Position numbers and translations under genes: made by a program
In this document: positions 9,826-43,374 of the stretch, one piece after another
How the letters are laid out: every line of letters begins with the position of its first letter
Numbering within the stretch: position 1 is the stretch's first letter
The notes under the pieces: generated by a model
What the model was told of the DNA's origin: nothing
Database searches by the model: none
What the model saw: the letters and a program-made list of their open reading frames with translations, nothing else
DNA from: an uncultured Alphaproteobacteria bacterium
GTDB taxonomy: Bacteria > Pseudomonadota > Alphaproteobacteria > Rhodobacterales > Rhodobacteraceae
Assembly: GCA_963708425.1 (NCBI GenBank)
Contig: OY970206.1
Coordinates: 1,841,208-1,905,207, forward strand
Direction: 5' to 3'
DNA length: 64,000 nucleotides

Positions 9826-10268
9826 TGCAAGAAAAGACCGAAGACATAGCAATTGCCTTGTTCGGAGAGCTGTTCACGGCCGATCAGTTAGCGCGCAATC
9901 GCATATCCAAAGTGCTGCCGCGCGGGATGGAGCTTTCGCATTTTTCCGTGCTGAACCATCTTGCGGGCATTGGCGACGAACGATCGCCCGCCCAGCTTGC
10001 GCGCGCCTTTCACGTAACGCGTGGTGCCATGACAAACACGCTGGCCAAACTTGAATGGGCCGGCCATATTCATATTCGCCCGGATTGGGATGACGCGCGG
10101 CGCAAGTTCGTGGCGATCAGTCCCTCTGGCCGAGCCGCACGCGATGCAGCTGTTCAGGCCATAGCGCCGCTGATTGGCGAAGTCGTGCAGGCGCTGGGTG
10201 CAGACCGGGTCCGGTCCGTGCTGCCCGTCTTGCGTGAATTGCGGACCCGGCTGGAAGGCGACGTCTGA
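9822..10268 (+). CDS. MarR family transcriptional regulator
   Basis: About 148 aa with a winged-HTH region (LSHFSVLNHLAG...PAQLARAFHVTRGAMTNTLAKLE). Its start overlaps the upstream stop (GTGATG at 9822-9827). Confidence 0.8.
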   Translation: MMQEKTEDIAIALFGELFTADQLARNRISKVLPRGMELSHFSVLNHLAGIGDERSPAQLARAFHVTRGAMTNTLAKLEWAGHIHIRPDWDDARRKFVAISPSGRAARDAAVQAIAPLIGEVVQALGADRVRSVLPVLRELRTRLEGDV

Positions 10269-10360
10269 TCGTCGGCAGCTAAGATTTTGTCAAACATTTG
10301 GACGTAACTCTTTGTCGCAGTGTCGCCCGTTTCTGGCGCTGTGGTGCAAAGGGATATTTC

Positions 10361-11215
10361 ATGCGGGTTCTGATCACAGGGGCAGCTGGCCGATTGGGGC
10401 GGATGCTGCGCGCCGCTTGGGCAGATACCGCACCGTTGGGGTTTGAGCCGATCTGGTCCGCTCGGTGGGCCGATGGTTCAAACGATCTTGCATGGGATAT
10501 ATTGTCTGGTTCCGCACCCAACATCGCGGAAGGCGCCGCCGTCCTGCACTTGGCCGGAGTTTTGCGGGGCCATTCCGCTGCGCTATCGGAAAATGCGGCT
10601 ATGGCGCTGAAGGTTTGTGCCGCTGCAAGGTTTGCCGGTGCGAGACATGTTTTTCTGACGTCTTCCGCGGCCGTCTATGGCTCAAGTTTTCGCGACCACG
10701 TCGAAGTTCACGCGCCAGCACCCTGTTCCGGGTACGGGCGTGCAAAGCTGGCGATGGAACGCGCGGCATTGTGTTGGGCGCACGACGCGGGGTCAGATGC
10801 ACCGAGTGTGACCTGCATGCGGATCGGGAATGTTCTGGGGGCCGATGCGCTATTAGGCCGGGGTATAACCGGGCACGATATCGTGCTTGATTCGGTTATG
10901 GGGCAGCCGCGCGGCCCACAACGATCCTACATTGGCCCCACGGCGCTGGCGAGGGTTCTGGCCGACTTGATCATGCAGGTCCTAGCTGGCCGGACTATGC
11001 CGCCGATCCTGAATATAGCAGCGCCCGGTGCCGTGTTCATGACAGATTTGCTAGACGCCGCAGGTATGCCATTTCGCTTTGCTCCACACAAGAACCGGAC
11101 CATTCCCAAAGTTAGCCTTTGTACAGCCAAACTATCGCGCATGGTGGCGCTGGGCGCCGCGGATGCCGCTATTATGGTCGCCGACTGGCGGCGGCTGTCG
11201 GTGGCCGTTTCGTGA
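10361..11215 (+). CDS. NAD-dependent epimerase/dehydratase family (extended SDR); candidate sugar-nucleotide 4-reductase
   Basis: It has the Rossmann motif MRVLITGAAGRLG and the catalytic YGRAK (YxxxK). It is coupled to the downstream sugar transferase by a GTGA overlap at 11212-11215. Confidence 0.75.
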   Translation: MRVLITGAAGRLGRMLRAAWADTAPLGFEPIWSARWADGSNDLAWDILSGSAPNIAEGAAVLHLAGVLRGHSAALSENAAMALKVCAAARFAGARHVFLTSSAAVYGSSFRDHVEVHAPAPCSGYGRAKLAMERAALCWAHDAGSDAPSVTCMRIGNVLGADALLGRGITGHDIVLDSVMGQPRGPQRSYIGPTALARVLADLIMQVLAGRTMPPILNIAAPGAVFMTDLLDAAGMPFRFAPHKNRTIPKVSLCTAKLSRMVALGAADAAIMVADWRRLSVAVS

Positions 11216-11832
11216 CGCCTTACAAAAGAGCGTTCGATGTCGCGCTGGTGCTGTGCCTTACTGCGCTACTTGCTTTGCCGGTTTGCTTTGTCATGCTGGC
11301 TCTACTTATCTGCCAGAGTGGTCCGATCTTCTATGCATCTGAACGGATGACGACGCCAGATACGCCGTTCTGGCTTTGGAAGTTCCGCACCATGCAGTTC
11401 TCGATTGCCGACAGTGGCGTGTCTGGTGGTGATAAGGCGGTGCGGATCACGCCAATGGGGCATTTCCTCCGGTGTATGCGGCTGGATGAAGTGCCGCAAC
11501 TGTGGAACATCATTCGCGGCGACATGACCTTTGTTGGCCCCAGGCCGCCGCTGCGCGACTACGTCGAACGCTTTCCGCATCTTTATGCGCGCGTCCTGAA
11601 ATGCAGGCCGGGTGTGACCGGCCTTGCCACGCTGATCTTGCATGAGCGTGAGGAGCGCCTATTGGCCGCCTGTCCAACGGCCGCTGAAACCGACGCGGTC
11701 TATGCGAGGCGATGTGTTCCAGTCAAGGCGCGTATCGATCTGATCTATCAGCAAAAACAGACTCTATTGTTAGACGTTTGGATACTCTTCCTCACCGTTC
11801 TGAATGTTTGCAGAACGGGCAACTCTGCTTAA
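11212..11832 (+). CDS. Small monotopic phosphoglycosyl (sugar) transferase, PglC/WbaP-C-terminal type
   Basis: One N-terminal hydrophobic helix-break-helix is followed by KFRTM, DEVPQLWNIIRGDMTFVGPRP and PGVTGLA motifs. The GTG start at 11212 was chosen. The track ORF start 11119 overlaps the previous gene. Confidence 0.85.
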   Translation: MTPYKRAFDVALVLCLTALLALPVCFVMLALLICQSGPIFYASERMTTPDTPFWLWKFRTMQFSIADSGVSGGDKAVRITPMGHFLRCMRLDEVPQLWNIIRGDMTFVGPRPPLRDYVERFPHLYARVLKCRPGVTGLATLILHEREERLLAACPTAAETDAVYARRCVPVKARIDLIYQQKQTLLLDVWILFLTVLNVCRTGNSA

Positions 11833-11856: not shown

Positions 11857-13818
11857 ATGGTGAACACAAGTAACGGTTCGGGACTGAAGCTGAGGGTACA
11901 GATGTCAGTGCGCCTATCTCTTTTTTGTCTGGTCAAAGGCCTTTCGTGGCGGCAGAAGTGGCTGGCGTTTCTGCTTGTCGATACGGCTATGGCACTCGGC
12001 GCGTTTGCCCCAGTGCTTGGGTCCGGTTCGCCAGTTGCTCCGCCGCTAGCCGTCGCTTCACTCGCGGCAGTTTCGTGCATTACCGCGGCCGCTTCTTTGG
12101 CGGTGGGTCTACCTCGGATCAAGCTGAATGCATTCGGGCGGCACGCGCTTTTGGTGACGGTCAAGTTTGCGATGCTCGTGACTACTGGCGTTGTGATGGT
12201 TTGCCAAATCGCCTCTTTGGCAATTGATGTGGCTGCTTCGGCGATGTTTGGAAGTAGTCTGTTTATTGGTTGTGTCGCCAGCCGCTATGCCACGCTCAGC
12301 ACGCTTCTTTGGCTGCGTCATCAGGGTCAAACGCGACGTCGGGTGCTGATCTATGGTGCGGGTGATACCGGGGTTCAGATGGCGGTGGCGCTTCGCACTG
12401 ATCCCGGGATTCTGCCGGTGGCATTCTTGGATGGCGATGTCGATCTTCAGGCAATGATAGTTGCAGGCTTGCCAATGCTGTCACCTGCAGGGCCGGACCC
12501 GAATCTGCGCGATTTGGCTGCCGATAGCGTGCTACTGGCGTTACCGTCTGCGCCGGCTGCTAAGTTGCAACAGATCAGCTGCAAGCTGGAACCGCTGGGC
12601 TTCGAGGTGCAGGCGTTACCCTCCTTTGCGCCATTGCTCGGAACTGAAGCGTCGATCGTGCTGGCCGCCCCTGACCGTCCGGGGCAGTTTCTGAGCCGCG
12701 CGGTTGCTGGTGACGAAACGACCGATGTTGGTCGTGCCTATGCAAGGCGAGTAGTCCTAATATCGGGTGCCGGAGGGTCGGTCGGGTCAGAGTTGTGTCG
12801 TCAGCTGATCGTCCATCGGCCCAAAGCCTTAGTCTTGTTGGAACACAGTGAAATTGCGCTGTACACAATTGACCGGGAGTTGCGCGATTTGGTCGCCGGT
12901 CTTGATATTCAAGTCGTTCCAGTCCTTGGGTCGATCTCTGACGCGCGCCTAGCGAAAAGCGCGATGATTGAGGCTGGTGTAGAAGTTGTATTTCATGCTG
13001 CCGCCTACAAGCATGTGCCGTTGGTTGAGGCCAATCCAGTGGCGGGCCTTTCGAACAACGTCATTGGCACTCGTGTCTTTGCAGAGGCCGCGGTTGCCGC
13101 CGGCGTTGCCCGTTTCTTGCTGATTTCCACCGATAAAGCCGTTCGACCCACCAGTGTGATGGGCGCTACAAAGCGGCTCGCCGAACTCGTTGTGCAAGAT
13201 TTGGCACGACGATCATCGAAAACGCAGTTCTCGACGGTGCGCTTTGGTAATGTCCTCGGGTCCTCGGGGTCTGTTCTACCGCTTTTTCGCGATCAGATTG
13301 CCCGGGGTGGCCCCGTTACCCTCACCCACAACGATGTGACACGGTACTTCATGACGTTGGCCGAAGCGGCACGTTTGGTGTTGATAACCGGGGCGCTCCC
13401 GCAGGCCGACGGTTTGGCCGATGTCTTTGTTCTGGATATGGGATTGCCAGTCAAAATTCGTGATCTGGCAGAGCGGATGATCAAGGCCGAAGGACTATCC
13501 GTGCGAAGCGATGATAACCCCTTTGGCGATATCGAGATCGCGGTGATGGGTCTGCGATCGGGCGAAAAATTGCATGAAGAACGGATGATCGGCGGCCACT
13601 CTCTACCTACCCTGCACCCTAAAATACTTCGGACACAAGAGACCGGACTTTCGGAGTTTGCGATGGCCAGAGCGCTGAATGCCGCCCGCGCAGCCATCCA
13701 CTCGGGCGACCATGCGACCGCACGGGCGGTGATCTCTGCTTGGGTGAAAGGGTTTCCCATGTACGAAGCGCGAGACTCTGAACCGATCAAGGAGGTCGAC
13801 GCGCAAGTTCCGGCTTGA
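11857..13818 (+). CDS. Membrane-bound polysaccharide biosynthesis protein, CapD/PglF/WbpM family (UDP-GlcNAc 4,6-dehydratase type)
   Basis: It has N-terminal TM helices and two Rossmann-like regions (LIYGAGDTG; LISGAGGSVGSEL). It also has the catalytic AAAYKHVPLVE and the FGNVLGSSGSVLPLF motif. The exact start is uncertain. Confidence 0.85.
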   Translation: MVNTSNGSGLKLRVQMSVRLSLFCLVKGLSWRQKWLAFLLVDTAMALGAFAPVLGSGSPVAPPLAVASLAAVSCITAAASLAVGLPRIKLNAFGRHALLVTVKFAMLVTTGVVMVCQIASLAIDVAASAMFGSSLFIGCVASRYATLSTLLWLRHQGQTRRRVLIYGAGDTGVQMAVALRTDPGILPVAFLDGDVDLQAMIVAGLPMLSPAGPDPNLRDLAADSVLLALPSAPAAKLQQISCKLEPLGFEVQALPSFAPLLGTEASIVLAAPDRPGQFLSRAVAGDETTDVGRAYARRVVLISGAGGSVGSELCRQLIVHRPKALVLLEHSEIALYTIDRELRDLVAGLDIQVVPVLGSISDARLAKSAMIEAGVEVVFHAAAYKHVPLVEANPVAGLSNNVIGTRVFAEAAVAAGVARFLLISTDKAVRPTSVMGATKRLAELVVQDLARRSSKTQFSTVRFGNVLGSSGSVLPLFRDQIARGGPVTLTHNDVTRYFMTLAEAARLVLITGALPQADGLADVFVLDMGLPVKIRDLAERMIKAEGLSVRSDDNPFGDIEIAVMGLRSGEKLHEERMIGGHSLPTLHPKILRTQETGLSEFAMARALNAARAAIHSGDHATARAVISAWVKGFPMYEARDSEPIKEVDAQVPA

Positions 13819-14067: not shown

Positions 14068-15018
14068 CTAAACCTCATCTTGCAAAATGGTCATACTTTG
14101 GGCCAGCCAAGGAAACGCTTCAAGTCCCGGATCTACCGCCTCAGCCTGCAAGAGACTACGCACGGTGCTGGCTATGATATTGGCAATCTCTTCGGTCCAG
14201 TCGCCCGGTTGGAACAAGGAGATTACGCGGGAAAATCCGGCAAACGGCAGTGGGTAAATGTCAATCTGGCCTTGAAACTGCCGCGCGCGCAAGAAACCAA
14301 GGGGAGTCGATATTGCCCATCCGGCACCGGCCGCGATCAGGCCGAAAATCGCCTGGTTGCTATCCAGTTCAACCCGTCCCGGCGGTTGCAACTTCAACCG
14401 GGCCAGATGCGTGGCAATCTGCCGCCCCATCACTTGGCTTCGATCATAGCGCAGGAATGGCAGGTCTTTCAGCACATCAAGGCTGTGGAGCGACCCTTTC
14501 AGGTAGCCCCGCGGCGCTACCAAAACGAAGGGGTCGCGCAGCAAGGGAGTTTCGGCAACTCCGGCAGGCACCTCAAGCGGTCGTGCAGCAATGCCAATAT
14601 CAAGGCTACGATCAGCAATGCTTTGAAGGATCGCATGGCTGGGTATGGTTTGCAGCGACAAATCGCACTGGGTCAGCACGCTGGCCAACCTGACCGTCAG
14701 CTTTGGCGTGATGTCAGTGTCAAAATCGTCAATGACGCCAAGCCGCAAGCGGCGCAGGCTGGTCATATCCATCAACGACAGGGCAGTCGATCCGTATCGC
14801 AACTGCGCCATTGCATCGTGGACGTGCACCAGATAGGCGCGGCCCGCCCGGGTCAGGGTCAACGGCCGTCGCCCATGATCGACCAAAGTTTGCCCAAGCG
14901 CCGCTTCCAGCTTTTTCAACTGTTGCGAGGCGGCAGGGGCACTGAGGTCAAGTTTATGGGCAGCGTCCTGCAGGCTGCCGGTACGGGCGATCTCTTCGAA
15001 CACCTCGATGGCACGCAA
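14068..15018 (-). CDS. LysR family transcriptional regulator
   Basis: The N-terminal HTH is MRAIEVFEEIARTGSLQDAAHKLDLSAPAASQQLKKLE and the C-terminal part is substrate-binding-like. It has a TTG start and is divergent from the aminotransferase operon. Confidence 0.9.
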   Translation of the reverse strand: MRAIEVFEEIARTGSLQDAAHKLDLSAPAASQQLKKLEAALGQTLVDHGRRPLTLTRAGRAYLVHVHDAMAQLRYGSTALSLMDMTSLRRLRLGVIDDFDTDITPKLTVRLASVLTQCDLSLQTIPSHAILQSIADRSLDIGIAARPLEVPAGVAETPLLRDPFVLVAPRGYLKGSLHSLDVLKDLPFLRYDRSQVMGRQIATHLARLKLQPPGRVELDSNQAIFGLIAAGAGWAISTPLGFLRARQFQGQIDIYPLPFAGFSRVISLFQPGDWTEEIANIIASTVRSLLQAEAVDPGLEAFPWLAQSMTILQDEV

Positions 15019-15029
15019 GGAAACTGTTT

Positions 15030-15047
15030 TGCCAAGAAGCTGTGGCA
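15030..15047. promoter_or_regulatory. Candidate LysR-type operator (inverted repeat TGCCA-N8-TGGCA) in the divergent intergenic region
   Basis: TGCCA (15030-15034) and TGGCA (15043-15047) are reverse complements. The site lies 12 nt from the LysR start and 68 nt upstream of the aminotransferase ATG. Confidence 0.3.
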
Positions 15048-15114
15048 GGATAGTCCCTTTCGGTTGGCGGGTGTTTCAGGGCAAGATACCTCAAACAGCC
15101 GAGGTGCGCCTTAT

Positions 15115-16332
15115 ATGATGGACGTTTTCCGAAAAAGCTTTACGCAGCAAGAGCCAATATCAGAGGCTGCGATTGCAAGGTCAGCAGACGTGATGCGGTC
15201 TGGTCGGCTGCATCGCTATAATGTTGCGCCGGGCGAGGTCGGGCCTGTCGCCGAGTTCGAGCGTGCTTTTGCGGCTTGGTTGGGCGCTCCCTACGCGTTG
15301 GCTTTGGCATCGGGCGGCCAGGCGCTTCAGATTGCTCTGCGCGCGGCGGGCGTCAAGCCGGGCGACCGGGTTCTGACGAACGGCTTCACGCTTGCCCCGG
15401 TCCCAGGTGCGATTGCCGCAGTTGGCGCGCGGCCCTTGTTGGTAGAAACCACCGAAAGCCTGCGCCCCGATCTGGATGATTTGGATGTCAAAGCGGCGAC
15501 TGGCCAAGCGCAGGTTATGATGCTTTCCAATATGCGCGGCCATCTGCCAGATATGGAGGCTATTCAAGCCATTTGCGCCCGGCACGGTTTGCTGCTGTTG
15601 GAGGATTGTGCGCATACGATGGGCGCTGCGTGGAAGGGCAAGCAAAGCGGCACGTTCGGCATTGCCGGGTGTTTTTCGACGCAAACCTACAAGCACATGA
15701 ATTCGGGCGAAGGCGGTATTCTTACGTCAGATGATGCGGCGTTCATGGCGCGGGCGACAGTGCTTTCAGGGTCTTACATGCTTTACGACCGCCACGGTGC
15801 CGGCCCGGATGCCAAGTATTTCGAGGACGCTCGCTATGACATGCCTAACTGTTCTGCCCGGATGGACGCCGTTCGGGCGACATTGTTGCTGGATCAGATT
15901 GGATCTTTGGCAGACCGAATTCGGCGCTGGAATGAACGCTATCATGCGGTGGAAAGGGGGCTTGCCGGGGTGCGGGGGCTGACTTTGCCGCACCGTCCGA
16001 AGGAAGAAAGCTACGTGGGATCTTCGATCCAGTTTCTGGTGCCTAAATCGTGGAGCGAACAGAACTGCACTTGCTTTGCCGAAGCCACTGCAGCGCGCGG
16101 TGTCGAAGTCAAATGGTTTGGTGCGGTAGAACCGAAAGCATTCACCAGCCGCTACGATAGCTGGCACTATGCCAAGCCTGACCCGCTGCCCAACACCGAT
16201 GCTGTACTGGCACGGTTGTTTGATATGCGGCTGCCCCTAACGTTTGATGTAACTGATTGCACGTTGATCGCCCAGATTCTTGTCGACGAATTTGCCAAAG
16301 AAAACCGCAGACCCAATCTGGCAGGCGTGTAA
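15115..16332 (+). CDS. DegT/DnrJ/EryC1/StrS family PLP-dependent aminotransferase
   Basis: It has the LEDCAHTMGA motif and the PLP-lysine region CFSTQTYKHMNSGEGGIL. The real start was taken at ATG 15115. The 5' 1164 nt of the 793-aa track ORF are antisense to the LysR gene. Confidence 0.85.
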   Translation: MMDVFRKSFTQQEPISEAAIARSADVMRSGRLHRYNVAPGEVGPVAEFERAFAAWLGAPYALALASGGQALQIALRAAGVKPGDRVLTNGFTLAPVPGAIAAVGARPLLVETTESLRPDLDDLDVKAATGQAQVMMLSNMRGHLPDMEAIQAICARHGLLLLEDCAHTMGAAWKGKQSGTFGIAGCFSTQTYKHMNSGEGGILTSDDAAFMARATVLSGSYMLYDRHGAGPDAKYFEDARYDMPNCSARMDAVRATLLLDQIGSLADRIRRWNERYHAVERGLAGVRGLTLPHRPKEESYVGSSIQFLVPKSWSEQNCTCFAEATAARGVEVKWFGAVEPKAFTSRYDSWHYAKPDPLPNTDAVLARLFDMRLPLTFDVTDCTLIAQILVDEFAKENRRPNLAGV

Positions 16333-17627
16333 TGACCTTTACCTATTTCAAACGTGGCACGCCCCTTGACGCGGCAGCTTCGGCCGATGTCAGCAGCAGA
16401 GTTGCTCGCCTGTTGGCCGAGATTGAGGCTGGCGGCGAAGCGACGGCCACCCGCATTGCGCGCGAATTTGACCATTGGGATGGCGATATCGTCTTGTCGG
16501 ACGAAACCATTGCCACCGCCTGTGCCCGGGTTCCACAAGGCCTTAAGGACGACATCGCCTATGCGCATGAAAACATTGCGCGGTTTGCCCAAGCGCAGCG
16601 TGACAGTTTTACCGAGACAGAGGTTGAGCTGCGCCCCGGCCTGCGCGTTGGGCAAAAACTGATCCCGGTGCAGGCGGCTGGCTGCTACGTTCCGGGCGGG
16701 CGCTACAGCCATATTGCCAGCGCGATGATGACGGTTACCACAGCTAAGGTGGCGGGCGTTACACACGTGGCCGCGGTCTCCCCGCCTAGGCCTGATGCCA
16801 TAGCCGGCATACCCGATGCCATTTTGTACACCCTGCACCACTGCGGGGCCGATCGGGTTCTGGCGCTTGGTGGCATTCAGGGTGTTGCCGCGATGGCGTT
16901 TGGCCTGTTTGGTTTACCGCGTGCCGACATGCTGGTCGGCCCCGGAAATCAGTTCGTGGCCGAGGCTAAGCGCCTGCTTTACGGTCGTGTCGGCATTGAT
17001 ATGGTTGCAGGCCCGACCGACAGTATGGTCATCGCCGATGCTACTGCTGATGCGCTTGTGGTGGCTTGGGATCTGGTTGGCCAGGCCGAACACGGCGTGA
17101 ATTCCCCAGTGTGGCTTGTGACTACCAGTCCCGAACTTGCTGCCGAAGTGCGTCGATTGGTGCCGCTTTGTGCTGCCGACCTGCCAGAACCAAATCGGTC
17201 GGCTGCGCTCGGCGCTTGGGATGCGCTGGGCGAAATTGTCATCTGCGCAACCCCGGAAGTCATGGCTGCGTATGCCGACAGGGTGGCGCCGGAGCATCTG
17301 CACGTGCAGGCAGATGATCTGGATTGGTGGTTGGGGCGGCTGCGCGCCTATGGGTCGTTGTTTTTGGGGGCCACTTCGACTGTGGCTTTTGGTGATAAGG
17401 CTGCTGGCACCAACCACGTTTTACCCACCAGTGGGGCCGCGCGATATACCGGCGGCTTGTCGGTGCATAAGTTTCTGAAAACGGTAACTTGGCAGACGGT
17501 ATCGGCTGAGGCGTTACCGCAACTCGCCGGGGTAACGGCCCGCATTTCCCGCTTCGAAGGCATGGAAGGCCATGCCCGCACTGCTGACATTCGTCTTGGC
17601 AAACTTGCCGCCAATTCCCCCATCTAA
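16332..17627 (+). CDS. Histidinol-dehydrogenase (HisD) family NAD-dependent dehydrogenase, non-his-operon paralogue
   Basis: HisD blocks are present: GCYVPGGRYSHIAS, GPGNQFVAEAKR, GQAEHGVNSP, APEHLHVQ and HVLPTSGAARYTGGLSV. Its start overlaps the upstream stop (TAATG at 16330-16334). Confidence 0.85.
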   Translation: MTFTYFKRGTPLDAAASADVSSRVARLLAEIEAGGEATATRIAREFDHWDGDIVLSDETIATACARVPQGLKDDIAYAHENIARFAQAQRDSFTETEVELRPGLRVGQKLIPVQAAGCYVPGGRYSHIASAMMTVTTAKVAGVTHVAAVSPPRPDAIAGIPDAILYTLHHCGADRVLALGGIQGVAAMAFGLFGLPRADMLVGPGNQFVAEAKRLLYGRVGIDMVAGPTDSMVIADATADALVVAWDLVGQAEHGVNSPVWLVTTSPELAAEVRRLVPLCAADLPEPNRSAALGAWDALGEIVICATPEVMAAYADRVAPEHLHVQADDLDWWLGRLRAYGSLFLGATSTVAFGDKAAGTNHVLPTSGAARYTGGLSVHKFLKTVTWQTVSAEALPQLAGVTARISRFEGMEGHARTADIRLGKLAANSPI

Positions 17628-17639
17628 AGGACTGATCCA

Positions 17640-18641
17640 TTGAACCTTGCCCGCTTTCCCCGCATTCGCCTTGGCCACCTGCCCACCCCGCTAGAGCTGA
17701 TGCCGCGGCTAACTGCCTTGCTTGGCGGACCAGAGATATGGATCAAACGCGATGATTGCACCGGGCTTTCCACTGGCGGCAACAAGACCCGAAAGTTGGA
17801 GTTTCTAATGGCCGAAGCGGTGGCAATGGGGGCCGATATCGTGCTGACTCAAGGTGCCACGCAATCGAACCACGCGCGGCAAACAGCTGCGGCGGCGGCA
17901 AAGCTGGGCATGGCCTGTCATATCCTGCTGGAAGATCGTACTGGGTATAACGAACCGAACTACCGCATGAACGGTAACGTGTTGCTGGATGTGCTGCACG
18001 GTGCCACGATTGAACATCGCGGGCCGGGGTTGGATATGAACGCCGAGATGATGGCGGTAGCGGACAAGTTTCGCGCCGACGGCCGCATGCCCTATGCCAT
18101 TGTGGGCGGCGGATCGAACGCTACCGGTGCGCTGGGCTATGTGAATTGCGCGTTGGAACTGCTGGGCCAGATGGTAGACAGCGGCCTGGTGTTTGACCAC
18201 ATGATTACGGCGACCGGGTCTGCCGGTACGCAAGCAGGGCTGATTGTTGGGCTTAAGGCGCTAAACGCCCAGTTGCCGCTGTTGGGCATTGGTGTGCGTG
18301 CGCCCAAAGAAACGCAAGAGGCGAACGTATTTCGTCTGGCGCAGGCGGTTGAAGAGAAAATGGGTCTGCAAGGCGTCGTCGCGCGCGCCGACGTGGTGGC
18401 CAACTGCGATTACATCGGGCAGGGTTACGGCATTCCAGCCGACAGCACGCTAGAAGCGATTGATATCTTTGCGAAAACCGAAGCCATTTTGCTTGATCCG
18501 GTCTATTCTGGCAAAGGGGCTGCAGGGTTGATCGACCTGATCCGCAAGGGGCATTTCAGGAAGCGGGAGCGGGTGGTGTTTTTGCATACCGGGGGCGCTA
18601 TTGGCCTGACCGGCTACACCCACGTGCTGCCACACCTGTGA
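17640..18641 (+). CDS. PLP-dependent D-cysteine desulfhydrase / ACC deaminase / cysteate sulfo-lyase (CuyA) family enzyme
   Basis: It is collinear with E. coli DcyD as I recall it: [61 protein letters not shown] and [17 protein letters not shown]. It has a TTG start with SD AAAGGA. Confidence 0.85.
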
Positions 18642-19321
18642 AAGCGGTTGGCATCATCGGCGGTATGGGCCCGGAGGCGACGGTTTTGCTGATGCAAAAG
18701 CTGCTTGCCGCTGTGCCCGCCCGTGATGATGCCGACCATATCCCCCTGATTGTGCACCAAAACCCGGCCGTGCCCAGCCGCATCAAACGGCTGATCGACG
18801 GTGTGGGCGATGATCCGGCCCCTATTCTGGCGCAGATGGCGCAAGACTTGGCGGCGGCTGGCGCGCGGGCGCTTGCAATGCCCTGCAACACCGCACATGC
18901 CTATGCACCGCAAATCATCGCCGCGACGTCGCTGCCATTTCTGGATATGCGCGACGCGAGCATGCAGCATCTGTGCCGTTTTTTGCCGCCCGGGGCAAAA
19001 ATCGGGCTGCTAGCTTCTCCCGCCGTGCGTATGGTTGGCGTGTTCGATCAGCCCTGCGCCAATGCTGGCCTGACGCCAGTCTTTCTGGACGATGATGCGC
19101 CGCTGCTTGGCTTGATCCAAACCGTCAAGTCCGGCGATATGGGTTGTTCTGCTCAGGCTGAAATGGCGCGTCTGGCCGATCTGCTTGCGACCCGCTGCGA
19201 TCATCTTCTGATTGCCTGCACCGAATTGTCGCTGCTGACGTCCGCGCTCGTTGGCTTGGCGTGGACGGATACCCTTGATTGTCTGACGGCAAGGATCGTT
19301 GCCTTTGCCAAAAGCCGCTAG
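18638..19321 (+). CDS. Aspartate/glutamate racemase family protein (PLP-independent amino-acid racemase)
   Basis: The N-terminus is [15 protein letters not shown]. Two catalytic-Cys regions are present (AMPCNTAH and LIACTELS). The GTG start overlaps the upstream stop (GTGA at 18638-18641). Confidence 0.85.
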
Positions 19322-19381: not shown

Positions 19382-20209
19382 ATGACCTATCTGCGATCTC
19401 TTATGACGCTGATCGCAGCGCTGATGCGGCGCAGCGAACGCGCCGAGTTGGGCCTGATAGCGGCGGGTGTTGCGTTCTTCGGTTTTCTGGCGATCTTTCC
19501 GGCGGTGGCGGTAGTTATTGCCGTTTGGGGGTTTGTGGCAGACCCCGCTGTGATCCGGCAAGAGGTTGCCCTGTTGCAGGACTTTTTGCCGATCGAGGCC
19601 TATGTCTTGATTGTGGCGCAAGTCGACGGCCTGCTTTCTGCCAATAACCGTACATTGGGGTGGTCGACCGTTTTCTCGACGGTGCTTGCGTTTTGGGCGG
19701 CGCGCGCCGGTATGGCCGCGCTGATCCAGGGGCTCAACGCGGTGCATCATCTGCCACAGCGCACCAACGTCTGGCATCAGGTGCAGGCACTGGTCATGAC
19801 GGTTGCGTTGGTGGGGCTTGCCTTGGGTGCGATGTTGGCATCGGTTGTTGGGCCGCTGGTGATCGGGCTTTTACCACTTGGGCGTTTTGCTGCGATTACG
19901 TTAGAGTTGGCGAACTTTGCCTTAGGCGCGGCACTTTTGGTGCTGGCGATCGGACTGGCCTACCGATTTGGCCCGAACCGAACGCTGGCCCATCCCCTGT
20001 TTACGCGGGGGCTGTTACTAGCCCTTATCCTTTGGGCGCTGGCGTCACGTGGGTTTGTGATTTATCTGGCTAACTTTAACACCTATAACCAAATATATGG
20101 ATCAATCGGCGCAGTGGCTGCCCTGCTAATGTGGCTTTATCTTAGCGTGTACGCTGTGCTAATTGGGGCTGCGTACGATGCCGAACGCAGCGCACAGGCC
20201 AATCAATAG
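19382..20209 (+). CDS. YihY/BrkB family inner-membrane protein
   Basis: 275 aa, polytopic. The typical N-terminal GLIAAGVAFFGFLAIFPA block and the C-terminal YGSIGAVAALLMWLYLS block are present. Confidence 0.8.
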   Translation: MTYLRSLMTLIAALMRRSERAELGLIAAGVAFFGFLAIFPAVAVVIAVWGFVADPAVIRQEVALLQDFLPIEAYVLIVAQVDGLLSANNRTLGWSTVFSTVLAFWAARAGMAALIQGLNAVHHLPQRTNVWHQVQALVMTVALVGLALGAMLASVVGPLVIGLLPLGRFAAITLELANFALGAALLVLAIGLAYRFGPNRTLAHPLFTRGLLLALILWALASRGFVIYLANFNTYNQIYGSIGAVAALLMWLYLSVYAVLIGAAYDAERSAQANQ

Positions 20210-39655: not shown

Positions 39656-41338
39656 TCAGCCCTTCCCATACAACTCGTCCGCTTCCGCCTTGGAATACCG
39701 CCCCAACCGCACATCCTCGGCAACGGCTGCAGGCTCGCGCCTTGCCGGATCGCCGTATCCACCGCCGCCCGGTGTTCGCACCCGCACCCGGTCGCCCGGC
39801 CCAAGCACAATGTCCTGCGCCTTCGACAGATGCTCCGGCACCATCACCACGCCGCCCCGCGTCACTTCAACCCTGTTCAAAGCGCCGTCGCCACCACCCA
39901 ACGCGCCTTGCGGCCCGGTGCGCCCGTGATCCATCACGAAACTGGCCCGCGCGTTGCCCCGCAGTAGCTCAATCTCGTAATCCAATCCAAAACCGCCCCG
40001 ATGCTGCCCCGCGCCGCCAGATCCTTCATGCAAACCATAGCGGCGATACAGCACCGGAAAGTTCTGTTCCATAATCTCAACCGGCGGGGCTTTCGAAATG
40101 CCAATAGTCGAACAGCCATTGCTTAACCCGTCATGGTCGGCATTGCCGCCATAGCCGCCACCCGAAATCTGATACATCACATAATCGCGCCCGCGCTCCG
40201 GGTCATGTCCACCAAGGCCAAAGTTGCCAGACGTGCCTGCGGGTGACGCTGTTACCCGATCCGGCAACGCCTGTACCAATGCCGCAAACACTGCTTCGGC
40301 AATGCGCTGGCTTACCTCGGCCGCACAGCCAGACACCGGGCGCGGATATTGCGCATCAAGAAACGTACCTTCAATCCCGGTCACTACCAACGGCTCGAAC
40401 GCGCCGGCAGAAATCGGCACATCCGGAAAGATATGACGCATCGCCAGATAAACTGACGACAGCGTTGTTGCGCGAACCGAATTCATCGGCCCCATACAGG
40501 GCAGCGACGACCCAGCAAAATCAAACGTCAACGCATCACCATTCGCCGTCACCGTCAGCGCAATCGTCAATGGTTCATTCACCACGCCGTCGCTATCGAC
40601 ATAGGCGCTGGCGGTGTAACTTCCCTCCGGGATCAGCCCGATGTTGGCCCGCATCTGCCGCGCCGCAAGCACCCGCATTTCGGCAATCGCCTCGGTCACT
40701 ACGACATCGCTATAGCGATCCAGCAATGCCGTCAGCCGTGCCGCCCCTACCAACAGCGCCGATGCCTGCGCCTTTACATCGCCAATCCGTTGTTCGGAAA
40801 CCCGTATGTTGGAGCAGATGATCTGGTAAATCTCAGTATCCATCACACCGCGCTTGAACAGCTTCACCGGCGGCAGACGCAGACCCTCTTGTTCGGCACT
40901 TGTCGCACTTGCTGAAAACCCGCCGGGCACTGACCCGCCAGTATCTGGCCAATGTCCGGTGTTGGACAACCAGCAATAGATCACCCCATCTCGATAAAAC
41001 GGCATCGCAAAGCGCACATCCATCAAATGGGTACCGCCAAGATAGGGGTCATTAACAATATAAATGTCGCCCGGCTCCGGTGCCGCCGTCACCCCCGCTG
41101 CAATACGCTCCACAATATGCCGGGTCGAAAACTGCATGGTGCCGACAAACACTGGCAGACCACGCGCGCCCTGCGCAATCAAAGCGCCATCCACAGCGGA
41201 ATAAATGCCATCCGACCGATCATCCGCTTCGGCTATCACCGGCGAAAACGCGGCACGGCTGAAGGTCAGGTCCATCTCATCGCAGACCTGCTGCAACCCC
41301 GCCTGAATAACCGCCAATGTTACCGGATCAAGCATCAT
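39656..41338 (-). CDS. hyuB: Hydantoinase B/oxoprolinase family protein
   Basis: Blocks present: DPVTLAVIQAGLQQVCDEM, NDPYLGGTHLMD, GGGYGG and PGGGGYGDP. The ATG at 41338 (or 41335) overlaps the end of hyuA. Confidence 0.9.
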   Translation of the reverse strand: MMLDPVTLAVIQAGLQQVCDEMDLTFSRAAFSPVIAEADDRSDGIYSAVDGALIAQGARGLPVFVGTMQFSTRHIVERIAAGVTAAPEPGDIYIVNDPYLGGTHLMDVRFAMPFYRDGVIYCWLSNTGHWPDTGGSVPGGFSASATSAEQEGLRLPPVKLFKRGVMDTEIYQIICSNIRVSEQRIGDVKAQASALLVGAARLTALLDRYSDVVVTEAIAEMRVLAARQMRANIGLIPEGSYTASAYVDSDGVVNEPLTIALTVTANGDALTFDFAGSSLPCMGPMNSVRATTLSSVYLAMRHIFPDVPISAGAFEPLVVTGIEGTFLDAQYPRPVSGCAAEVSQRIAEAVFAALVQALPDRVTASPAGTSGNFGLGGHDPERGRDYVMYQISGGGYGGNADHDGLSNGCSTIGISKAPPVEIMEQNFPVLYRRYGLHEGSGGAGQHRGGFGLDYEIELLRGNARASFVMDHGRTGPQGALGGGDGALNRVEVTRGGVVMVPEHLSKAQDIVLGPGDRVRVRTPGGGGYGDPARREPAAVAEDVRLGRYSKAEADELYGKG

Positions 41339-43374
41339 GTCCCCCAATCGTGATGATCAGATTGCCATCGGCGTCGCTGGTCACGAGGTCCCCCGGTTCC
41401 ACCACAATCGTCGTATCCATCTGCTCGATAATCGCCGGGCCAGTCAGCTTGGCATCCAGTGGCAGGTGATCGCGCCAGTAAACCGGCGTCTCCACCCAAT
41501 TGCCAAAATAGACCCTACGCTGGCCTTTTTGCGCATCTTTCACCGAATTTCGTCTCCCTGCGGGATCAATCAACCGTGATAAATCCACCTCCGGTCGCCG
41601 CCCGATTACCGAAACGTTCAAGTTCATCAAATTCGCCCGGATGTTCGGCAAATCCACATGAAACCGAGCATGATAGGCCGCCTCAAAAAGTAACTGAAGC
41701 GTTTCCCGATCGGGCGTTGCATCGGGCAGAGCTATGCGTAAAAGATGGGTCTGCCCCACAAATTGCATATCACACGTGTTACGCACCTCGATGCCGCGCA
41801 ATTCCAGCTTTTCAGCCGCGATCAAAGCCCGCCCTTCCGCCGCCTGATCCGCCAAAATCGCATGAACCCGCCCCATATCAACGCTATCCAGCGGCTGATT
41901 CAAAGACCGAACAAAATCATGCCTCAAATCCGCAACCACGCAGCCCAAAGCATTCGTAATGCCTGGCCTCGCCGGGACCAAAACTCGCGGGATAGCCAGC
42001 TCCCGCGCCAAAGCCGCCGCATGAAGCGGCCCCGCCCCGCCAAAAGCAAACAAAGCAAAGTCGCGAGGATCAGCCCCCATCGAGATGGAAACCATCCGGA
42101 TAGCCCCCCCCATATGCGCGTTCGCGACCCGTATCACCGCCTCGGCAGCCGCTTCCACCGACAGCCCCAACGGCGCTGCAATCTGATCCTGCATCGCCGC
42201 CCGCGCTGCCCCGATCGCCTGCCCGAACCGTTCCGCAGGCAGCCTTCCTAGCAGCAAGTTTGCAGTCGGAAATCGTCACGCGGGTACCACCCAACCCGTA
42301 ACAAACCGGCCCCGGATGCGACCCCGCACTTTCTGGACCCACCCGCAGCATCCCCCCCGCATCAACCCGCGCGATAGACCCACCCCCAGCCCCAACGGTG
42401 CGAACGTCCACCATCGGCACATGAATCGGCATTGCGTACTCAATCTCGATCTCGTTCGAAACAGGTGCCAAACCGCCCTTAATCAGTGCCACATCGGTTG
42501 AGGTGCCGCCCATATCATAGGTCACCAAATCAGCCATGCCCGCCCGAGCTCCGGTGTAAACCGCTGCCATAACCCCCGATGCTGGCCCGGACATCACGGT
42601 TTTCACCGCCTCGCGTGACACTTTCGCCGCCGACACCATGCCCCCATTGCCGTTCATCACCAGCAACTCGCGCGCATACCCCCGCGCTGCCAACCCTTCG
42701 GCCAGCCTCCCGATGTACCGTTCCAACATCGGCTGCACCGAGGCGTTCACCGCCGCTGTCACCCCCCGCTCATATTCCCGGCTTTCCGACAGCAAGGCAT
42801 GGCCCATCGTGATGTATGGTGTCGGCCAAAGACTGGCGGCAATCTCCGCCGCGCGGCGTTCATGGGCCGGGTTGGCATAGCTGTGCAGAAAGTGGATCAC
42901 CAAGCTTTCGCACCCAGCAGCGACAAGCTGGGCCACCGCATCGCGCACCGCACCCTCGTCCAAAGCCGTTACCACACGCCCTTGCGCATCCATCCGCTCC
43001 GGAACTTCCAGACGCAGATCGCGCGGGATGATCGGGGTAAAGCGCCCCGTCATGCCATACGGATTTGGTCGTGTGCGCCGCCCCAGCTCCAACACATCGC
43101 GAAATCCGACAGTCGTGATCATCCCTGTCCGACATAATTTCCGTTCCAACACGGCATTTGTCGTCGTCGTTGTACCGTGCACGATCAGATCAATATCGGC
43201 CAGCGGGGCGTCAGCAGTCTCTAACGCTGCCAAAACGCCTGCCGCCTGACCACCCGACGCTGGGTCTAGCGTTGTTGGCACCTTGGCTAGTCGCACGGCG
43301 CCAGTTAGGGGATCAAAGATCACGAGATCGGTAAATGTGCCGCCAACATCAACGCCTGCAACCAGCCCAGCCAT
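41328..43374 (-). pseudogene. hyuA: Hydantoinase A/oxoprolinase family gene interrupted by a single-nucleotide frameshift at 42264
   Basis: The N-terminal ORF (43374 down to about 42265) has GVDVGGTFTD and reaches ...GTRVTISD. The C-terminal ORF (42263 down to 41328) continues ANLLLGRLPAERF... in the +1 frame. Removing the base at 42264 gives a continuous 681-aa HyuA with the canonical junction TISDANLLLGRL. Confidence 0.75.

Follow-up and report, generated by a model that had tools for sequence, protein, structure and literature searches.

A probable cuyC-hpsN-cuyA-cuyB operon for D-cysteinolate dissimilation in an uncultured member of the Rhodobacteraceae

The 64,000-nucleotide stretch of DNA analysed here (referred to as the window; contig OY970206.1 of GenBank assembly GCA_963708425.1, forward-strand positions 1,841,208 to 1,905,207) comes from an uncultured alphaproteobacterium of the Rhodobacteraceae and carries a LysR-family gene transcribed divergently from four closely packed genes for enzymes of the DegT, HisD, PALP and Asp/Glu-racemase families. 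Very probably, these four genes constitute a cuyC-hpsN-cuyA-cuyB operon encoding the complete enzyme set for the dissimilation of D-cysteinolate (2-amino-3-hydroxypropane-1-sulfonate), an osmolyte of algae and bacteria. In the proposed route, CuyC, a pyridoxal phosphate (PLP) enzyme of the DegT fold, would epimerise D-cysteinolate to L-cysteinolate; HpsN, with Zn2+ and two molecules of nicotinamide adenine dinucleotide (NAD+), would convert the primary alcohol to L-cysteate in a HisD-type four-electron oxidation; CuyB would racemise L-cysteate to D-cysteate; and CuyA, again with PLP, would eliminate sulfite from D-cysteate, leaving an aminoacrylate intermediate that would hydrolyse to pyruvate and ammonium. 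The net reaction would be cysteinolate + 2 NAD+ -> pyruvate + NH4+ + sulfite + 2 NADH.

The precedent is a study published in J Biol Chem in December 2025, which reported that cuyA and cuyB often cluster with genes for an HpsN homologue and a PF01041 enzyme, named CuyC, and characterised the four-enzyme D-cysteinolate pathway in Bilophila and Desulfovibrio litoralis (PMC12814064). Purified CuyC of Bilophila sp. 4_1_30 exchanges the alpha-proton of D-cysteinolate; CuyC and HpsN, supplied with NAD+, turn D-cysteinolate into cysteate without an amino acceptor; Bilophila HpsN prefers L-cysteinolate to (R)-2,3-dihydroxypropane-1-sulfonate ((R)-DHPS), which it oxidises more slowly, and is inactive on D-cysteinolate; and CuyA, when coupled to CuyB of B. 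wadsworthia, liberates sulfite and pyruvate (PMC12814064). The cluster is also carried by D. litoralis, an organism that respires with D-cysteinolate, and most CuyC homologues are found in Alphaproteobacteria, especially Paracoccaceae and Roseobacteraceae (PMC12814064). Work on the last two steps showed that CuyA prefers D-cysteate 50- to 100-fold, with rates of 3-5 per second on D-cysteate against 0.1-0.2 per second on D-cysteine, and that CuyB, of the Asp/Glu-racemase family, supplies D-cysteate from L-cysteate (PMC11193023). The initial annotation of the locus, made from the sequence, had proposed that cysteinolic acid is converted to cysteate, racemised and desulfonated, had mentioned a cysteate racemase encoded beside cuyA, and knew of no characterised operon of this combination. 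The series of reactions is the one demonstrated for the four-enzyme set (PMC12814064), the window proteins pass the available family tests, and the cysteate racemase beside cuyA is CuyB (PMC11193023); on the last point the annotation has been overtaken by the December 2025 study.

Gene layout and junctions

The locus comprises the following features:

14068-15018, minus strand: LysR-family regulator gene, TTG start at 15018
15019-15114: divergent intergenic region of 96 bp, presumed cuyC promoter/operator
15115-16332, plus strand: cuyC, DegT/DnrJ/EryC1/StrS-family PLP enzyme, predicted D/L-cysteinolate racemase, ATG at 15115
16332-17627, plus strand: hpsN, HisD-family Zn/NAD+ dehydrogenase, predicted L-cysteinolate dehydrogenase forming L-cysteate, ATG within TAATG
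17640-18641, plus strand: cuyA, predicted PLP-dependent D-cysteate sulfo-lyase (pyruvate + ammonia + sulfite), TTG start
18638-19321, plus strand: cuyB, Asp/Glu-racemase-family predicted cysteate racemase (L- to D-cysteate), GTG within GTGA

The initial annotation had placed the LysR gene divergently from four tightly coupled plus-strand genes, and both the map of open reading frames (ORFs) and the raw sequence agree with its five genes and three junctions. The stop codon of cuyC overlaps the start codon of hpsN in the TAATG at 16330-16334; hpsN and cuyA are separated by a 12-nt gap, AGGACTGATCCA, which together with the end of the preceding stop codon makes an AAGGA ribosome-binding site; and cuyA and cuyB overlap in the GTGA at 18638-18641. 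The DegT-family gene is read from the ATG at 15115, and reading from 15116 meets 11 stop codons. As to the other starts, HpsN, CuyA and CuyB align from residue 1 with PDB 8wwe, Ruegeria pomeroyi CuyA and aspartate racemase 1jfl, respectively, and the Pfam HTH_1 and LysR_substrate domains cover the LysR product from residue 2. In the related contigs L082 and L087, whose proteins are 70-96% identical to those of the window, the four-base overlap, the 12-nt gap with AAGGA and the second four-base overlap are all kept, and the overlaps and the 12-nt gap are kept in L093 as well (proteins 68-83% identical). Because this junction geometry recurs in related contigs, the operon structure is conserved and not a matter of chance ORFs; the four plus-strand genes are real and translationally coupled.

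Enzyme assignments and competing explanations

The five products fall into the Pfam families LysR, DegT_DnrJ_EryC1, Histidinol_dh, PALP and Asp_Glu_race. The HisD-family protein (PF00815 Histidinol_dh, 415 bits) is closer to HpsN than to HisD in both score and motif. It scores 547 bits (60.6% identity) against 8wwe, an '(R)-DHPS dehydrogenase' that is probably the R. pomeroyi HpsN structure of PMC11131964, and 470 bits (53.4% identity) against Cupriavidus pinatubonensis HpsN (CpHpsN, 8v35), but at most 234 bits against any HisD structure. HpsN enzymes carry a specific motif, G-R-Y-A/S-H, whose last His binds the sulfonate, at the place where HisD has G-S-A-P-L (PMC11382572), and the window protein has GRYSH at residues 123-127. 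Its His127 and Lys356 (in GDKAAG) correspond to the sulfonate-binding His126 and Lys353 of CpHpsN, whereas in the solved HisD 9lbv both of these places are taken by Tyr (GGKASY, GDYCAG). Likewise, Gln251, His254, His414, Asp355, Glu321, His322 and His362 correspond to CpHpsN Gln248, His251, His411, Asp352, Glu318, His319 and His359; the Zn ligands and the catalytic Glu-His and Asp are all present, and ten of the ten CpHpsN active-site positions are kept, with Ser226 replaced by Thr as in 8wwe. By score and motif the 16332-17627 product is assigned to HpsN and not to histidine biosynthesis, and it may also oxidise (R)-DHPS.

The alternative that survives best, unlikely as we consider it, is a DHPS/sulfolactate route in which HpsN would oxidise (R)-DHPS to (R)-sulfolactate, this would pass to sulfopyruvate, and the DegT enzyme would transaminate sulfopyruvate, giving cysteate on which CuyB and CuyA would act. 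The original definition of HpsN was that of an (R)-DHPS 3-dehydrogenase, and the two enzymes to which the window protein is 60.6% and 53.4% identical are of that kind; Bilophila HpsN also oxidises (R)-DHPS, though more slowly; DegT-family enzymes are mostly aminotransferases; and R. pomeroyi reportedly routes DHPS to cysteate and CuyA. Yet a scan of the operon and of other window ORFs shows neither a sulfolactate dehydrogenase gene (SlcD/ComC) nor hpsO or hpsP, L-cysteinolate is the best HpsN substrate in this type of cluster, and the characterised member of the DegT subgroup is a racemase that supports HpsN-coupled NADH formation without an amino acceptor. The initial annotation had cast the DegT enzyme as interconverting keto and amino sulfonates; that role does not hold for this type of cluster, whose DegT enzyme has been shown to be a PLP-dependent cysteinolate racemase and not an aminotransferase (PMC12814064).

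Assignment of the DegT-family product to CuyC draws on its relatives and their neighbourhoods. The protein matches PF01041 with 194.5 bits, scores far under the cut-off of every NCBIfam sugar-aminotransferase equivalog (for example PseC, 114 against 423.5), and reaches only about 101 bits with its best solved-structure match; no NCBIfam model exists for CuyC. Its PLP lysine is K193, in TYKHMNSGEGG, at an invariant column of alignment A1. A genome scan returned at least 598 homologues, and neighbourhoods were examined for the best 80 loci, all of them from Proteobacteria; among these species representatives the closest homologues are only 64-65% identical. At about 20 of the 80 loci the homologue lies between the other two racemase and lyase genes as cuyA-cuyC-cuyB, and hpsN and a PF03601 (CuyZ-type) gene frequently follow downstream; at the remaining loci it is solitary. 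The window protein is 54-65% identical to the cuyA/cuyB-flanked homologues of Alpha- and Betaproteobacteria, and 54% identical to a gammaproteobacterial homologue with hpsN nearby (L078). Metagenomic relatives with CuyC 70-89% identical share the order cuyC-hpsN-cuyA-cuyB, and neighbour-joining groups the window CuyC with L082, L087, L091 and L093, all of which are ordered in this way; the neighbourhood survey that the initial annotation had proposed has recovered a recurring arrangement.

The published CuyC cluster is delimited by an E-value of at most 1e-110 and about 45% identity to the assayed Bilophila CuyC and, in operational terms, by the presence of HpsN, CuyB and CuyA within 5 ORFs (PMC12814064). 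In the window, hpsN, cuyA and cuyB are the next three genes downstream of cuyC. The window protein is 56-58% identical to the CuyC homologues of other Ruegeria species (E about 1e-146). In a 50%-clustered library, only about eight full-length representatives are at least 45% identical to it, and identity then falls to 35-41%, which fits the compact cluster of about 45% identity described in PMC12814064. The window CuyC is named a predicted racemase, a class that published residue signatures do not separate from the aminotransferases.

In a second alternative, which we hold to be very unlikely, only hpsN-cuyA-cuyB would form a sulfonate module, and the DegT protein would be a sugar aminotransferase belonging to the polysaccharide genes upstream:

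10298-11215, plus strand: NAD-dependent epimerase/reductase gene, upstream sugar gene
11119-11832, plus strand: Bac_transf phosphoglycosyl transferase gene, upstream sugar gene
11857-13818, plus strand: Polysacc_synt_2 membrane 4,6-dehydratase gene, upstream sugar gene

DegT enzymes commonly partner with 4,6-dehydratases of the Polysacc_synt_2 family, the DegT gene follows a Polysacc_synt_2 gene in every close relative, and L084 keeps it there without hpsN, cuyA and cuyB. The association with sugar genes is, however, limited to the window's clade, being found for none of the 80 best genomic homologues as against about 20 flanked by cuyA and cuyB. Gemmobacter-like genomes (L095, L096) run Polysacc_synt_2 - yjbH - yjbF - BrkB - TamB - TamA - ROK, with yjbH and yjbF in the slot and neither cuy genes nor a DegT gene. 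In the window itself a divergent LysR gene separates the DegT gene from the sugar genes, its stop codon overlaps the hpsN start codon, and its product scores far under the cut-offs of all the sugar-aminotransferase equivalogs. The candidate role as aminotransferase of the upstream sugar genes was rejected on this comparative context. The upstream trio, for its part, we take to resemble a three-gene set of Rhizobium etli that starts O-antigen synthesis with N-acetylquinovosamine (QuiNAc) and needs no aminotransferase.

The last two enzymes of the D-cysteinolate route are recognised by dedicated models. CuyA scores 529.6 bits on NCBIfam NF052482 (sulfolyase_CuyA, D-cysteate sulfo-lyase; cut-off 450), whereas the NCBIfam models for D-cysteine desulfhydrase (287-303 bits, cut-offs 429-610) and 1-aminocyclopropane-1-carboxylate (ACC) deaminase (250 bits, cut-off 392) stay under theirs. 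Over 333 residues it shares 74% identity with the assayed CuyA of R. pomeroyi (SpCuyA), whose gene on megaplasmid NC_006569 has a LysR gene on one side and a 'sulfate exporter family' gene on the other; identity to E. coli DcyD is 47%. Placed against CuyA, DcyD and AcdS, as the initial annotation had suggested doing, the 17640-18641 product therefore comes out as CuyA by NCBIfam models and identity. Its N48, K49, S76, N77, Y289 and T317 correspond to N50, K51, S78, N79, Y287 and T315 of Salmonella DcyD; these conserved residues, among them the PLP Lys and the Tyr287-equivalent base, are common to DcyD and alone do not discriminate. CuyB scores 259 bits on NCBIfam NF052483 (racemase_CuyB, cysteate racemase; cut-off 190) and 119 bits on PF01177, and carries both cysteine motifs of the fold, MPCNTAH (C83) and ACTELS (C194), aligned with 1jfl. 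The C83 and C194 motifs are those of the cofactor-independent Asp/Glu racemase fold; the abstract of PMC12814064 calls cysteate racemase PLP-dependent.

Slightly less likely than the sugar-aminotransferase alternative is a module for the detoxification or catabolism of D-cysteine or other D-amino acids, in which the PALP enzyme would be a D-cysteine desulfhydrase and the racemase would act on Asp, Glu or Cys. The solved structure closest to CuyA, PDB 7ysk, is deposited as a 'D-cysteine desulfhydrase' (416 bits, against 272 for Salmonella DcyD), RefSeq annotates homologues under the same name, and CuyA enzymes retain some D-cysteine activity, at the rates given above. But the DcyD models fall under their cut-offs while the CuyA model exceeds its own, identity to the assayed CuyA (74%) is well above that to E. 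coli DcyD (47%), and a sulfonate-specific HpsN with a GRYSH motif would be left unexplained. The same scores disfavour the non-sulfonate D-amino-acid route that the initial annotation had kept as its alternative. With regard to the labels themselves, 7ysk may be a CuyA-type enzyme, and a literature search found no paper mentioning it; RefSeq applies 'D-cysteine desulfhydrase' to R. pomeroyi CuyA as well.

That the HisD-family gene is the cell's histidinol dehydrogenase, its operon position being incidental, is almost certainly wrong: the product passes NCBIfam TIGR00069 hisD (408 bits, cut-off 243.8) as well as Pfam Histidinol_dh, but it has GRYSH instead of G-S-A-P-L, Lys356 where HisD has Tyr, and 547 bits to HpsN against 234 to HisD, CpHpsN is inactive on L-histidinol (PMC11382572), and the window ORFs scanned include no other his gene, all in keeping with the initial annotation, which had noted the absence of his genes nearby and had denied this paralogue a part in histidine biosynthesis. 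Because the TIGR00069 cut-off is exceeded and no HpsN- or CuyC-specific model is matched, automatic annotation will say histidinol dehydrogenase. JGI names for members of the 90%-identical clusters are 'L-cysteate sulfo-lyase' and 'sulfopropanediol 3-dehydrogenase'.

Several points weigh against reading the four genes as a D-cysteinolate operon. Membership of the DegT product in CuyC is well supported by context but, since it is reached through relatives other than the assayed Bilophila CuyC, indirectly supported by sequence. Cysteinolate-acting and (R)-DHPS-acting HpsN share their substrate-binding residues (PMC12814064), and because these are identical the substrate of the window HpsN is read from operon context only. 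The four activities have been measured on enzymes of Bilophila, B. wadsworthia and R. pomeroyi (PMC12814064, PMC11193023); for the window proteins themselves we infer them from sequence, HpsN, CuyA and CuyB being assigned to their families and CuyC being placed among cuy-embedded homologues. For aerobes, R. pomeroyi among them, the use of cysteinolate awaits validation, and in no aerobic alphaproteobacterium has the pathway been confirmed physiologically (PMC12814064). The window ORFs scanned include neither an importer for sulfonates nor a CuyZ/TauE exporter, unlike the fuller alphaproteobacterial clusters, which have both, and a close relative, L084, has cuyC at this site without the LysR gene, hpsN, cuyA or cuyB. 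Finally, most roseobacter cuyC homologues among the best 80 loci are solitary, and for this reason the CuyC family may have roles beyond the cysteinolate pathway.

The solitary homologues form a clade of their own in the tree, which takes in most of the roseobacter loci among L003-L081. In Ruegeria arenilitoris (L036, 3976-13744) the neighbours of the cuyC homologue are glmS, glmU and genes for an AMP-binding enzyme, an acyl-CoA dehydrogenase and a HAD hydrolase; sulfonate genes are absent from its vicinity. Such homologues could take part in cysteinolate catabolism with dispersed genes or, for example, in cysteinolide lipid metabolism.

Regulator and genomic surroundings

The LysR product matches Pfam HTH_1 (64.4 bits) and LysR_substrate (91.3 bits), and no NCBIfam equivalog reaches its cut-off. 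R. pomeroyi CuyR aligns with it only across the helix-turn-helix (15 of 43 residues identical), and on this comparison the window regulator is not an orthologue of CuyR. An orthologue 76% identical to it occurs only in L082/L083 and is absent from L084 and L087-L089, while the intergenic region and cuyC start are 74-76% identical in DNA sequence to the region upstream of cuyC in L082, L084 and L087, LysR-less contigs included. In L087 (about 9851-10000), L088 and L089, an 18-residue remnant of the LysR C-terminus (56% identity, E about 6e-4) lies beside the conserved stretch of about 95 nt ahead of cuyC (about 76% DNA identity); apparently the L087-L089 lineage lost the LysR gene by deletion and retained the operon. 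The 96-bp intergenic region yielded no match to a sigma-70 consensus promoter, a terminator or an Rfam family, and searches for promoters, terminators, LysR boxes and riboswitches there and after cuyB returned nothing above chance. The initial annotation had called the operon 'LysR-controlled'. Divergence across 96 bp is the classical layout for such regulators, but control had been deduced from where the gene lies, its product is no orthologue of CuyR, and L087-L089 keep the operon without a LysR gene. LysR control is plausible here, though not conserved, and the regulator would presumably be an activator responding to the substrate or an intermediate.

The initial annotation had also remarked that the module lacks a transporter and a TauE/CuyZ-type exporter, and the scan of the window ORFs, which found no TauE/CuyZ exporter and no sulfonate-type importer, bears this out; uptake and sulfite disposal would be encoded elsewhere in the genome of about 3.7 Mb. 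The other ORFs scanned belong to housekeeping or unrelated catabolism: ferrochelatase, TamAB, a sugar cluster of ROK, ATP-binding cassette (ABC) transporter and FGGY-kinase genes, RND efflux, hydantoinase with a Liv-type ABC transporter, molybdopterin dehydrogenase, YchF and TrpA. Immediately downstream of the operon lies:

19382-20209, plus strand: YihY/BrkB membrane-protein gene, 60 nt after cuyB, overlapping the convergent tamB by 7 nt

No terminator is predicted between cuyB and this gene. YihY/BrkB was considered as the missing transporter or exporter and rejected as a resident of the backbone, its adjacency to TamB and Polysacc_synt_2 being kept in the cuy-less Gemmobacter-like genomes. 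Named relatives of YihY (61-65% identity) and of CuyA (at least 90%) are found in Gemmobacter, Pseudorhodobacter and metagenome-assembled genomes of Paracoccaceae, which places the window in a lineage of the Paracoccaceae (Rhodobacterales). Given the Gemmobacter-like backbone without a DegT gene, the stretch from Polysacc_synt_2 to BrkB is a variable slot, occupied by yjbHF, by cuyC on its own, by the four cuy genes or by these four together with LysR. Recent horizontal insertion was rejected: there are no flanking repeats, the GC content matches that of the flanks, and no tRNA genes were found.

Elsewhere in the window, the hydantoinase/oxoprolinase A gene at 41328-43374 (minus strand) seems split into two overlapping ORFs, of which 42070-43374 carries Hydant_A_N and the first 171 positions of Hydantoinase_A, and 41328-42257 carries positions 171-290 and Hydant_A_C. 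This split suggests a frameshift, reflecting either a pseudogene or a sequencing error.

Significance and comparison with known systems

Cysteinolate is an abundant algal sulfonate, and the operon adds an aerobic Paracoccaceae lineage, known mainly from metagenomes, to its predicted mineralisers. It also allows a confident annotation of four genes that pipelines call 'DegT aminotransferase', 'histidinol dehydrogenase', 'D-cysteine desulfhydrase' and 'aspartate racemase'. Validation of the published pathway has so far come only from anaerobic reducers of sulfite and sulfate, and a compact and self-contained operon in an alphaproteobacterium whose genome measures 3.7 Mb would make a convenient test case for its aerobic role. 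There is no new mechanism here: the chemistry, the enzymes and their wide alphaproteobacterial distribution have already been published. It is conceivable, if rather improbable, that this enzymes-only operon with a non-CuyR LysR serves the turnover of the cell's own cysteinolate and not the scavenging of algal cysteinolate. In that event the pool could consist of a compatible solute or of the cysteinolide aminolipid head group, both of which are made by related Rhodobacterales, and the LysR protein would be a new sensor of cysteinolate or cysteate.

The locus is a further example of the published system, peculiar in its gene order, its non-CuyR regulator and its lack of a transporter and exporter. 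Compared by family, it matches the Bilophila sp. cluster, which likewise unites a DegT CuyC, a HisD HpsN, a PALP-fold CuyA and an Asp/Glu-racemase CuyB, and the predicted chemistry is also the same, with one racemase on either side of a four-electron oxidation and a PLP-dependent desulfonation at the end. The window differs in its order, cuyC-hpsN-cuyA-cuyB, and in its divergent LysR gene. The hosts differ as well: that of the window is an aerobic-type member of the Paracoccaceae, which would discard sulfite or draw sulfur from it and not use it as a terminal electron acceptor, whereas the Bilophila-type hosts are sulfite or sulfate reducers.

Among Alphaproteobacteria, the same four enzymes occur in Cypionkella aquatica NBRC 111766 (L041), Limimaricola (L067, L076) and Cognatishimia (L040), where identity to the window is 58-65% for CuyC, 63-69% for HpsN, 63-75% for CuyA and 46-55% for CuyB. 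The fuller alphaproteobacterial clusters are ordered LysR(-) / cuyA-cuyC-cuyB-[ABC importer, TauABC-like or of OpuAC type]-hpsN-cuyZ (PF03601), and their LysR is CuyR-like, 41% identical to the cuyA-adjacent regulator of R. pomeroyi over at least half its length. The window, by contrast, has its genes in another order and a LysR unrelated to theirs, and its scanned ORFs include neither such an importer nor cuyZ. In L040, L049 and L091-L094, which belong to two CuyC clades (for example L093 653-6942 and L091 1851-8000), the cuy genes lie beside four further genes, for an MttB-family methyltransferase (PF06253), a DAO/GCV_T fusion resembling dimethylglycine dehydrogenase, an AraC protein with a DJ-1/PfpI domain and an OpuAC binding protein. 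The mttB gene of L091 and L093 lies on the cuyC strand and ends 0-20 nt ahead of cuyC; mttB-type neighbours are absent from the window. This neighbourhood could point to an N-methylated cysteinolate-like substrate, or could just be an osmolyte-catabolism island.

The cuyR-cuyA-cuyZ locus on the megaplasmid of R. pomeroyi DSS-3 resembles the window in having a divergent LysR-type regulator beside cuyA, with CuyA 74% identical. There, however, cuyA stands alone, with a tripartite ATP-independent periplasmic (TRAP) transporter and the CuyZ exporter, and cuyB, cuyC and hpsN lie at other loci. With the hpsRNOUP-suyAB cluster of Cupriavidus pinatubonensis and the roseobacter hpsN/hpsO/hpsP genes, the window HpsN shares its fold, Zn ligands, catalytic Glu/His/Asp and sulfonate-binding His/Lys. 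The DHPS clusters pair HpsN with HpsO/HpsP and with SuyAB or SlcD, and their substrate is a diol sulfonate; in the window hpsN is coupled in translation to cuyC and has cuyA and cuyB behind it, and this company indicates an amino-alcohol sulfonate as its substrate.

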